Shown: piece after piece, positions 18,001 through 21,000 of the stretch
How positions within the stretch are numbered: position 1 is the first letter of the stretch
Layout: every line of letters begins with the position of its first letter
Source of the DNA: Escherichia coli
GTDB taxonomy: Bacteria > Pseudomonadota > Gammaproteobacteria > Enterobacterales > Enterobacteriaceae
Reading direction: 5' to 3' (one strand)
DNA length: 64,000 bases
Assembly: GCF_003790525.1 (NCBI RefSeq)
Contig: NZ_CP033635.1
Program-made: the position numbers

Positions 18001-21000
18001 ATGTGCGGGCTGGCACCGTGTTCCAGCAATAACTGGACAATCGCCTGCTGTTTAATCCCGCCATCATTAAGCACAATTGCTTCCAGTAGCGGCGTCCAGC
18101 CAACATGGTTGGTCTGGTTAACGTTAATCTCCGTATGCGCCAAAAGCTCTTTTACAATACTTAAATGGCCTTTTTCACAGGCAGGCGTCAGGCCGACACC
18201 GCCAAAACGGGTTACGCAATTAAGATCGGGTTTAGCCGGTAAAATAATCCGTAACAGGGTTAAATCGCCGGTCAGGCAGCTAATTAAAAAAGGATTTGAA
18301 CATATCTGATCTTGCTTATTAATATCCGCTCCGGCGTCAATTAATGCCTGAACGCAAGCATATTGCTGATATAAACTTGCCAGCGTAATTGCCGTTTTCC
18401 CCTGACGATCGCAGGTATTAATATCGACACCCAGCGCAAGGCAGGTTTTTACTTTATCGATATCACCCTGTTGCGCAGCCAATAAATAGTCGGCAGGTAG
18501 ATTTTTTATAGTCATTCACATTCCCCTGGTTTTTGTGGCTGTTTTCGATGAATTGAGAATAGCAACGATAATCTGATAAAAGAACCCGCTTAAATTTAAT
18601 TCGCCGTATTTCGCCTTTTTGTTGAATGATGTTCAACAATCTTTTCGCAGTGTGCGGTAATGCAATATTTGTTTCTTTGACCCGATACCCTTTCACTCAA
18701 TCAGGTTTTATTTCTCTATAGTCTGCACATGTAAGAGTAGCTTTCGTCCATGTCTAACCAGAGGGGAACAAGATGAACGGACTCACGGCAACGGGTGTCA
18801 CCGTCGGTATTTGTGCAGGGCTTTGGCAGTTAGTGTCTTCACATGTCGGGCTCTCTCAGGGATGGGAATTATTAGGAACCATTGGCTTCGTCGCCTTTTG
18901 CAGTTTTTATGCCGCAGGCGGCGGTAAATCGGGGTTTATCAGAAGCCTGGCGGTTAATTATTCCGGGATGGTGTGGGCGTTTTTCGCCGCGCTGGCTGCC
19001 GGTTGGCTGGCCTCGGTGAGTGGATTGTCCACGTTCTGGGCGAGCGTGATTATGACTGTACCCTTCTCGGCGGTGGTGGTCTGGCAAGGACGTTTCGGTT
19101 TATTGTCTTTTATTCCCGGAGGCTTTCTCGGCATGACGCTATTTTTTGCCAGCGGGATGAACTGGACGGTGACGTTACTGGGTTTTCTGGCGGGTAACTG
19201 CGTGGGGATAATTTCAGAATATGGCGGACAAAAATTAAGCGAAGCGACGACTAAACGCGACGGGTATTAAAAGTTATTCAAAAATGATTATCTATCTTTA
19301 ACCGATACCTCTACAGTCATGGCTGGAGAAATTCATATTCGATAATGGCGGGAATGGTTTAATGAACTCAATTTTTACCGAAGAGAATCTGTTGGCATTT
19401 ACTACCGCTGCGCGTTTTGGCAGTTTCAGTAAAGCAGCAGAAGAGTTGGGTTTAACCACTTCCGCCATTAGCTACACCATCAAGCGAATGGAAACAGGGC
19501 TGGATGTGGTGCTGTTCACTCGCAGTACCCGAAGCATTGAGTTAACGGAGTCCGGGCGTTATTTTTTCCGCAAAGCTACCGACCTGCTGAATGATTTTCA
19601 CGCCATCAAACGCAGCATCGATACTATTTCGCAGGGTATAGAAGCACGGGTGCGCATTTGTATTAACCAACTGCTTTATACGCCCAAACACACCGCACGC
19701 TTATTACAGGTACTGAAAAAGCAGTTTCCAACCTGCCAGATTACCGTGACGACCGAAGTGTATAACGGCGTCTGGGATGCGATTATTAATAATCAGGCGA
19801 ATATTGCTATCGGCGCGCCCGACACACTGCTGGACGGCGGCGGCATTGATTACACGGAGATTGGCGCGATTCGCTGGGCTTTTGCTATCGCCCCGGATCA
19901 CCCGTTAGCCTTTGTGCCGGAACCCATCGCCGAAAGCCAGCTGCGTCTCTATCCTAATATCATGGTGGAAGACACCGCGCATACGATTAATAAAAAAGTG
20001 GGCTGGTTGCTGCATGGGCAGGAGTCGATTCTGGTGCCAGATTTCAACACCAAATGTCAGTGCCAGATTTTAGGTGAAGGAATTGGTTTTTTGCCGGATT
20101 ACATGGTCCGTGAGGCGATGGCGCAATCCCTGCTGGTTACCCGACAAATCCATAATCCGCGCCAGGATTCACGCATGTTACTCGCAACTCAGCATTCTGC
20201 TACGGGTCAGGTGACGCAGTGGATTAAAAAGCAATTTGCGCCAAATGGCATATTAACGGGGATCTATCAGGATTTACTGCATCGGGAGAATTAATCGCTG
20301 CCAACCTCCCGATGCGCTGTGAATAGCGGTTTACATCAACCACCTGCTTTCATTACCCATTCAGAGATAAATTTATTACCCGGTACTGGCGGAGAGTACA
20401 AATAGCCCTGCAAAAAGTGAACTCCTTTGCCGATCATTAAATCCGCCTGCTCCTGGGTTTCTACCCCTTCCGCCACGATACTCAGACCAGGCTTACGCGC
20501 CAGTTCGACAATATTGTCCACAATATGACCGGATATTTCGTCCACGCTCGCCATTTGCACAAATGACTTATCGATCTTAATAAAATCGACCGGGAACGCC
20601 TGCAAGTAACGATAGGTCGCATAACCCGTACCAAAGTCATCCAGCGCAAAGGTAATGTTGTGCTGATGAAGGCTGTCAAATATCGCTCTGGCTTCTGGCG
20701 TTACCGGAATAGGGTTACGTTCCGTCAGCTCAAGAACCAGTTTGATTTTATCGTTACCTAATTTCTTAACCAGGTTCAGACACTCTTTTTCAAATCCTGC
20801 GGCCAAAAAACAACCCGCCGAGACGTTGATGCCAATATGGAAATTGTCCGGCAGCAAATGTTTTACCGGCATCAGAATATCCGCAGTCTGTTTCATCAAC
20901 TGGCGAGTCATTATGACGATAAGACCAGATGACTCCGCCAGAGGAATAAACTGATCCGGTGGGATAATTCCCGTTTGTGGATGTTCCCAGCGGACAAGCA

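Follow-up and report, generated by a model that had tools for sequence, protein, structure and literature searches.

In the classical LysR-type layout, known from BenM, CbnR, and CatR, a recognition site is located at about -65 and a weaker activation site near -35. Two other regulators of this type offer closer points of comparison for the locus described here. The operator of PunR is a 23-bp palindrome (TsttwTCAAwAwwwTTGaaGGCA) that was first found by phylogenetic footprinting and was validated by chromatin immunoprecipitation with exonuclease digestion (ChIP-exo), fluorescence polarisation, and electrophoretic mobility shift assays, with binding only in the presence of adenine (PMC8376909). 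AllS activates the allD and allFGHK promoters and binds the allF promoter (allFp) at -203/-144 (PMC12535856, citing Rintoul et al., 2002), and the allF promoter requires ArcA besides AllS (PMC12535856). Here, we analyzed the intergenic region between yahD and yahC in a 64-kb stretch of Escherichia coli contig NZ_CP033635.1 (hereafter the window), in which the LysR-type regulator YahB is also encoded. No paper on a YahB operator or on the regulation of yahC/yahD was found in the literature. Our results suggest that a 23-bp inverted repeat in this region, named dyad P and part of the yahD operon's control region, is probably recognised by YahB with high affinity. Dyad P is most likely an element of an ordinary kind, a LysR-type operator, which would belong to an uncharacterised regulator.

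YahB contains the Pfam domains HTH_1 and LysR_substrate, and its best NCBIfam matches were AllS (268 bits) and PunR (239 bits), both below the equivalog cut-offs. AllS is its closest characterised paralogue (37% identity; PunR, 30%). Since YahB resembles AllS, and YahE, YahF, and YahG are counterparts of AllH, AllF, and AllG, the regulator and its presumed targets are jointly paralogous to the AllS system. YahI also belongs to the carbamate kinase family, like ybcF (allK in the AllS paper), the last gene of the allF operon. Both systems also have their site between divergent genes, at a considerable distance upstream of the ATG. However, allS is not adjacent to allD or allF, no effector has been found for AllS, and the allF promoter has its additional need for ArcA.

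The likeness to PunR concerns the operator itself. Aligned in equal register with the E. coli punR-punC sequence, dyad P has the same length of 23 bp, a dyad-centred T-N11-A, and the pattern T[S]AA-N5-TT[S]A, and like the PunR operator it is conserved across genera in the region between a regulator gene and its target. The two proteins belong to the same LysR subfamily and have the helix ...S-A-(I/V)-S-Y-T-(I/V)-(K/R) in common. The recognition helix of YahB, TTSAISYTIKRME, was nearly invariant in 82 orthologues, which matches the invariance of the dyad arms. Within the core, the two operators differ only at +/-5 (TCAA-N5-TTGA in PunR, TGAA-N5-TTCA in dyad P), and the outer arms are GGCA in PunR and ACAAT in dyad P. 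In addition, PunR targets a single transporter gene.

The inverted repeat in this strain

The first-pass annotation had reported a perfect 17-bp palindrome with a T-N11-A core. The 17-mer GTTGAATGATGTTCAAC maps exactly to 18621-18637, but it differs from its reverse complement, GTTGAACATCATTCAAC, and is therefore not perfectly palindromic; complementary 6-bp arms (GTTGAA/TTCAAC) surround the non-symmetric centre TGATG. The perfect inverted repeat extends further outward than had been described, to 8-bp arms TTGTTGAA-N5-TTCAACAA (18619-18626 and 18632-18639). The intergenic stretch 18516-18772 (257 bp) is 100% identical to E. coli SMS-3-5 and 98.4% identical to K-12, and was found in 5084 of 5426 complete genomes. 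K-12 differs at four intergenic positions, two of which fall at the repeat centre (18628 and 18631; G here, A in K-12). The centre in K-12 is thus TAATA, which results in a perfect 21-bp palindrome, TTGTTGAATAATATTCAACAA. According to the conservation described below, the functional unit is the 23-bp dyad at 18618-18640, which reads tTTGTTGAATGATGTTCAACAAT in this strain, and not the 17-bp palindrome.

A T-N11-A centred on the dyad is present within the 8+5+8 repeat, with T18623 conserved in 100% and A18635 in 91% of the orthologous sites. The same pattern occurs 24 times in the 257-bp intergenic region, and it is therefore uninformative by itself as evidence of a LysR-type site. The repeat taken alone is also only marginally unusual. 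The 64-kb window contains 64 perfect repeats (arms of at least 8 bp, spacer of 0-12 nt), where dinucleotide shuffles gave 14.2 +/- 4.7, and when the intergenic region was shuffled, a repeat at least as good arose with a probability of 0.059. Both the 5.9% of shuffles with such an 8-bp-arm repeat and the commonness of T-N11-A speak for a chance palindrome without function in AT-rich intergenic DNA.

Conservation of dyad P across genera

A scan for YahB with one genome per species gave 80 loci, with YahB identities from 79% to 99%. The genera sampled were Escherichia, Citrobacter, Kluyvera, Raoultella, Klebsiella, Enterobacter, Lelliottia, Leclercia, Buttiauxella, Serratia, Atlantibacter, Trabulsiella, Yokenella, Providencia, and Aeromonas. 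The dyad was found in 79 of 79 yahB/yahD loci from at least 15 genera, and each copy matched at least 15 of the 20 specified positions of the consensus ATT.TTGAat...aTT.AAcAaT (18618-18640). Over these 79 loci the arms carried 0.8-2.0 bits per column, with at least 1.5 bits at most positions, and the dyad centre (18627-18631) and the flanks about 0.3 bits. The pattern is mirror-symmetric around 18629.

The dyad centre lay 105-131 nt from the yahD ATG in the majority of loci, and 148-190 nt from it where the leader is longer (Atlantibacter and Providencia), whereas the distance from the dyad to yahC or yahB varied from 67 to 607 nt. These distances indicate that the dyad belongs to the promoter region of yahD and not to that of yahC. 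Three further conserved elements, blocks A, B, and D (Table 1), accompany it; their spacing to dyad P is free of insertions and deletions, except for single-nucleotide ones in a few loci, and the spacer sequences vary. In most genera (51/79 loci), yahB and yahD are immediate neighbours transcribed in opposite directions, and yahC intervenes in E. coli. The dyad accompanies yahB in every locus examined, including those in which yahB is not divergent. Moreover, wherever a cluster keeps the dyad architecture, the gene that directly follows the dyad is yahD; the three most distant loci (L087, L088, and L094) show no yahD. The earlier proposal of a candidate YahB operator was therefore strengthened by a conserved dyad in the yahD control region that is always found with yahB and has a PunR-like architecture, but the site is anchored to the yahD promoter and not to yahC.

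The 64-kb window, together with loci totalling about 1 Mb, was scanned with a matrix built on dyad P. In the window, its sole strong match was dyad P itself (27 bits). A further sequence, TGAATGATTTTCA at 19588-19600 inside the yahB coding sequence, is one base off the core TGAATGATGTTCA and is probably there by chance.

More distant homologues of YahB also keep the element. In Herminiimonas, a betaproteobacterium (L090; YahB identity 71%), the genes yahD-E-F-G-X-I-yahB are co-directional with yahB at the 3' end of the operon, and P (26 bits), B, and A precede yahD, so the dyad is retained there. In Pasteurella testudinis (L089; 61%), yahB lies within the operon, and a 12+3+12 perfect palindrome about 125 nt upstream of yahD keeps the core TTGAAT-N3-ATTCAA. 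A yahD-yahJ mini-cluster with a 145-bp intergenic region (L092; 71%) has A, B, and P with a B-P spacing of 32 bp. In this locus and two others (L080 and L081), P lies 36-67 nt from the yahB ATG (36 nt from the centre in L092). Two loci with varied gene order (L093 and L088; 53-66%) carry TGAA-N5-TTCA dyads 43-44 nt upstream of yahB. The motifs have drifted in homologues below about 60% identity (L087, L088, and L094), which are loosely informative. These distant loci fit a local, autoregulated regulator.

A functionless chance palindrome is effectively refuted by this pattern. The arms hold up to 2 bits per position over at least 15 genera, compared with about 0.3 bits in adjacent columns, the spacing to yahD and to the blocks is steady, and the dyad persists in a betaproteobacterium.

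The same repeat could also act at the RNA level, as a hairpin (a leader element or weak terminator) on a plus-strand transcript. Its 9-bp stem has a predicted energy of -7.4 kcal/mol (z = -2.1), and most of the one-sided arm changes (+/-3, +/-5, +/-10) would give G-U wobbles on the plus strand. However, only one Watson-Crick pair type was seen at each arm position, with position 8 as the exception (changes in both directions), and compensatory double changes were found at no position of the P arms among the orthologous sites. The wobble-type changes are few and shared by clades, leaving few independent events. The stem is AU-rich and weak, it received no terminator call and has no Rfam match, and a promoter for a plus-strand transcript running through it is not known. 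An RNA hairpin is therefore highly improbable as the reason for conservation, and the conservation of the aligned sites has the form of a DNA element bound by a symmetric dimer.

The predicted yahD promoter and companion blocks

Block A is the only minus-strand promoter candidate conserved across genera, with 10 of 12 positions at least 92% conserved in the 79 loci. It consists of TG (18564-18563) and TATTCT (18561-18556), preceded by a poor -35, TTCTTT (18584-18579). A putative transcription start of yahD is located near A18549; relative to it, P would be centred at about -80 and block B at about -48, spanning -34 to -58. A generic promoter and terminator scan of 18400-18900 gave nothing at threshold. 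Two other readings were rejected. For an alternative yahD promoter, TATCGT/TTAAGC, the -10 is not conserved outside E. coli. For a sigma-54 reading of block A with TTGC as the -12, there is no GG 10 nt upstream and the stretch is not conserved.

The conservation of block B spans 18578-18606 (AAaA..AtCCGcTTAAA..t.ATTCatCg), and its centre is 32 bp promoter-proximal of the P centre. Consistent with this, the second-best offset of the P matrix was -32, at which 89% of the loci scored above the 99th percentile of background. Block B might thus be a second YahB site, similar to an activation site.

A short similarity to the AllS system was seen in the same block. The AllS-bound allFp fragment starts with ATCCGCT (L083 17010-17018), which can be compared with 18584-18592 of the window. 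In orthologues outside Escherichia, ATCCGCT is the best-conserved stretch of block B, and E. coli has ACCCGCT; this may be due to chance or to a shared promoter feature.

Block D, on the other side of dyad P, could be a weakly CRP-like dyad or a plus-strand extended -10 (TGcAATATT, 18661-18669). As a plus-strand extended -10, it would put P at about -47. In Herminiimonas, block D is an inverted repeat, GCGCACA-N7-TGTGCGC.

YahB and alternative candidate binding factors

Based on these features, a YahB tetramer would bind dyad P, about 80 bp upstream of the predicted start at a promoter that has a conserved extended -10 and a poor -35, and would also touch the weaker related dyad 32 bp nearer the promoter in block B. 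With an effector, YahB may then activate yahDEFG and probably yahI and yahJ. A second dyad before yahB, P2 (19262-19286), would serve autoregulation. DNA binding by YahB may itself require the effector, as with PunR.

Much of this arrangement is similar to the classical LysR layout. Dyad P is an interrupted dyad containing T-N11-A, a putative second site of lower symmetry would lie about three helical turns nearer to a promoter whose -35 is poor, most genera have a divergent regulator gene, and autoregulation is probable. It differs in the unusually long arms of dyad P (10 bp) and in E. coli yahB being split from the site by yahC and having its own upstream dyad.

Several observations weigh against the assignment of dyad P to YahB. 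The predicted position of its centre, about -80, is further upstream than that of the usual LysR site, about -65. The similarity of block B to P is weak, with a low absolute score and negative log-odds. No yahD-strand start in the intergenic region is among the starts listed in the Cappable-seq table (U00096.2), where the plus-strand starts listed include 333269, 333794, and 334293; by our own conversion between genome versions, presumably none of the listed starts falls at the predicted yahD start. This absence is uninformative for a silent promoter. ChIP-exo of YahB-8myc in glucose M9 gave three weak peaks only (ygjD, nlpI, and yhcC; signal/noise 1.3-2.0) and no peak at yahC/yahD (PMC8464067 Dataset S4). 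The latter result is weak evidence because PunR needed its effector to bind DNA. The T.AA-N5-TT.A dyad is absent from the AllS-bound allFp fragment (-203/-144; L083 17010-17069), which means that the motif is not common to the whole subfamily. Finally, all loci were found via YahB, so co-occurrence cannot distinguish YahB from a ubiquitous regulator. An AllS-type site was also considered for dyad P and rejected, since neither the AllS-bound allFp fragment nor the allS-allA region has a T.AA-N5-TT.A dyad.

The empty locus in the YahB ChIP-exo data and a co-occurrence built into the sampling favor another factor, such as MetR, ArcA, a CRP/FNR-type protein, or another regulator, as the one that binds the dyad, with YahB acting elsewhere, for example at block B. 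We regard this as rather unlikely, although it deserves to be weighed factor by factor. The MetR box has the consensus TGAA-N5-TTCA, and the window sequence matches this core at 8 of 8 positions. However, this exact match is that of the present strain, and the conservation among orthologues departs from the box: C at +5 is found in only 51-53% of the sites (T otherwise), whereas ATTgT and AcAAT outside the box are 91-100% conserved. No link to methionine genes or methionine-related context was seen at the locus.

For ArcA, the paralogous allF promoter requires this factor together with AllS (PMC12535856), block B matches the ArcA consensus at 11 of 15 positions on the minus strand in E. coli, and an alternative reading of both P and P2 is as direct repeats of TGTTN with a spacing of 10 bp. 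ArcA repeats, however, need a spacing of 11 bp, and the perfect 21-bp palindrome of the K-12 site fits a symmetric dimer. FNR and CRP are disfavored by the spacing of their half-sites (TTGA-N7-TCAA here versus N6). More generally, a related dyad stays with yahB where yahC separates this gene from yahD, which argues against a global factor and is expected for an autoregulated local regulator. The consensus sequences of FNR, CRP, NAC, and IHF were also tried on the dyad and discarded because of wrong spacing or weak matches.

YahB therefore remains the probable ligand of dyad P. A more complete model is possible but doubtful: dyad P (-80), block B (-48), an element over the -10 that resembles a half-site, and P2 might together form a BenM-like three-/four-site switch that governs an ATP-yielding catabolism of carbamoyl compounds paralogous to allFGHK, with YahB binding only in the presence of the effector. 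That such a module extends through Enterobacterales, Aeromonas, Pasteurellaceae, and Betaproteobacteria is likewise a tentative proposal.

yahC insertion and the yahB-proximal dyad

yahC is limited to Escherichia, Kluyvera, Raoultella, Klebsiella, Pseudocitrobacter, and a few others, and the comparison of loci indicates that it is a later, lineage-specific insertion between the yahD control region and yahB. The yahC-bearing loci share the alignment blocks CTCAATCgGGTTTT.TTTCTATATAGT, and the promoter-like element TTCACT-N19-TATAGT is probably the promoter of yahC itself.

Dyad P2 runs across the stop codon of yahC and is positioned 88 nt before the yahB ATG. In a 160-nt alignment, TGTTAAA-N5-TTCAAAA.TGATTGC was conserved upstream of yahB in almost every genus, whether or not yahC occurs there, and yahB thus retains its own control region. 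We propose P2 as an autoregulatory YahB site. In a published RNA sequencing dataset, the baseMean values were 76 for yahB, 5.6 for yahC, and 13 for yahD (PMC8464067). These values and the P2 region argue against a simple yahC-yahB operon, and the two genes, previously taken as one transcription unit, are probably not simply co-transcribed.

Several other features were noted around yahC and yahB. The yahC-bearing genera do not have a conserved gene of 526 aa that other genera carry between yahG and yahI; its product is predicted to span the membrane at least 10 times and matches no Pfam family. A DUF1097 gene, the family of yahC, ends allFGH-like operons beside YahB homologues in a Neisseriaceae locus (L088) and on a metagenomic contig (L094). 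The substrate of the cluster may be transported by YahC in some genera and by the 526-aa protein in others. In yahB-divergent loci (for example L007 and L038), a conserved CRP-like GAA(G/C)TGTGA-N6-TCAAAT is located about 30 nt upstream of the yahB-proximal dyad, and a perfect half-site ...ACAAATACATTCAACAAT is found downstream of this dyad in Citrobacter, Buttiauxella, and others. Both CRP-like features are missing in E. coli, where the yahC coding sequence occupies the position.

A ChIP-exo peak of an unrelated factor, YfeC, presumably maps to about 18857-18888 of the window according to our own mapping (K-12 334131-334162), in the 5' part of the yahC coding sequence. This peak was strong (signal/noise 55.9), was assigned to yahC, and had RNA polymerase co-bound (PMC8464067 Dataset S4).

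Implications for the yah cluster

For yahB and for yahC, yahD, yahE, yahF, yahG, yahI, and yahJ of E. coli, dyad P offers a handle on the function of the cluster. A defined 23-bp site, together with a predicted promoter and companion sites, could be used for screening candidate inducers. The paralogy with the AllS-controlled oxamate carbamoyltransferase and carbamate kinase makes ureido or carbamoyl compounds and anaerobiosis the obvious candidates to begin with. If the full module with an effector-dependent YahB were true, the site could also be used as a reporter or bait for the substrate of the yah cluster. In addition, the operon picture of the locus is corrected, with yahC as an inserted gene and yahB with its own control region.

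Gene organization of the locus

The open reading frames and annotation bore out the gene context given in the first-pass annotation, with yahD, yahE, yahF, and yahG divergent from yahC and yahB. The genes and the elements discussed above are listed in Table 1.

Table 1. Coordinates of control elements and genes in the window
Feature	Coordinates	Strand	Description
Dyad P	18618-18640	.	23-bp two-fold symmetric, ATTGTTGAAT-N3-ATTCAACAAT, centre 18629; proposed primary YahB site
Block A	18554-18566	-	tGAGAATAGCAAc; consensus tGAGaATAGCAAc; yahD strand GTTGCTATTCTC; putative extended -10
Block B	18586-18608	.	ATCCGCTTAAA..T.ATTCATCG; degenerate dyad TAAA-N5-TTC(A/G), centre 18597
Block D	18651-18670	.	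Conserved tGTGCG-N5-GCAa..TTT (GTGCg...g.GCAa..TTT); GTGC-N6-GCA(C/A) dyad
yahC promoter-like element	18692-18722	+	TTCACT-N19-TATAGT; matrix score 8.3; only in yahC-bearing genera
Dyad P2	19262-19286	.	GGGTATTAAAAGTTATTCAAAAATG; core TAAA-N5-TTCA, centre 19274; second-best P-matrix match, 12.3 bits
yahD-yahE-yahF-yahG	14052-18515	-	Proposed target operon (open reading frames and annotation)
yahG	14052-15470	-	AllG-like (PF06545, precomputed Pfam hits on YahG homologues)
yahF/fdrA	15470-17017	-	FdrA/AllF-like protein (Pfam, NCBIfam)
yahE	17007-17870	-	AllH-like protein (Pfam, NCBIfam)
yahD	17910-18515	-	Ankyrin-repeat protein
yahC	18773-19270	+	DUF1097 membrane protein
yahB	19362-20294	+	LysR-type regulator, 310 aa; proposed binder of P, B, and P2
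pdeL	20336-21430	-	Annotation

Further downstream of yahG are yahI, coding for a carbamate kinase, and yahJ, coding for an amidohydrolase. The composition of the cluster is conserved across loci. In Enterobacter and Aeromonas loci (L053, L068, and others), no yahE was detectable between yahD and yahF, and in three loci (L080, L081, and L092) only yahD-yahJ stand beside yahB.

Two minor features were observed at the 3' side of yahG. A G+C-rich hairpin, CTTCTCCCCAAAAGGGAGAAG, is located at 14008-14028, just 3' of the gene. The yahG-yahI spacer is polymorphic within E. coli: in K-12 it is about 330 bp longer, and yahH is annotated there (L002 1116-1536).

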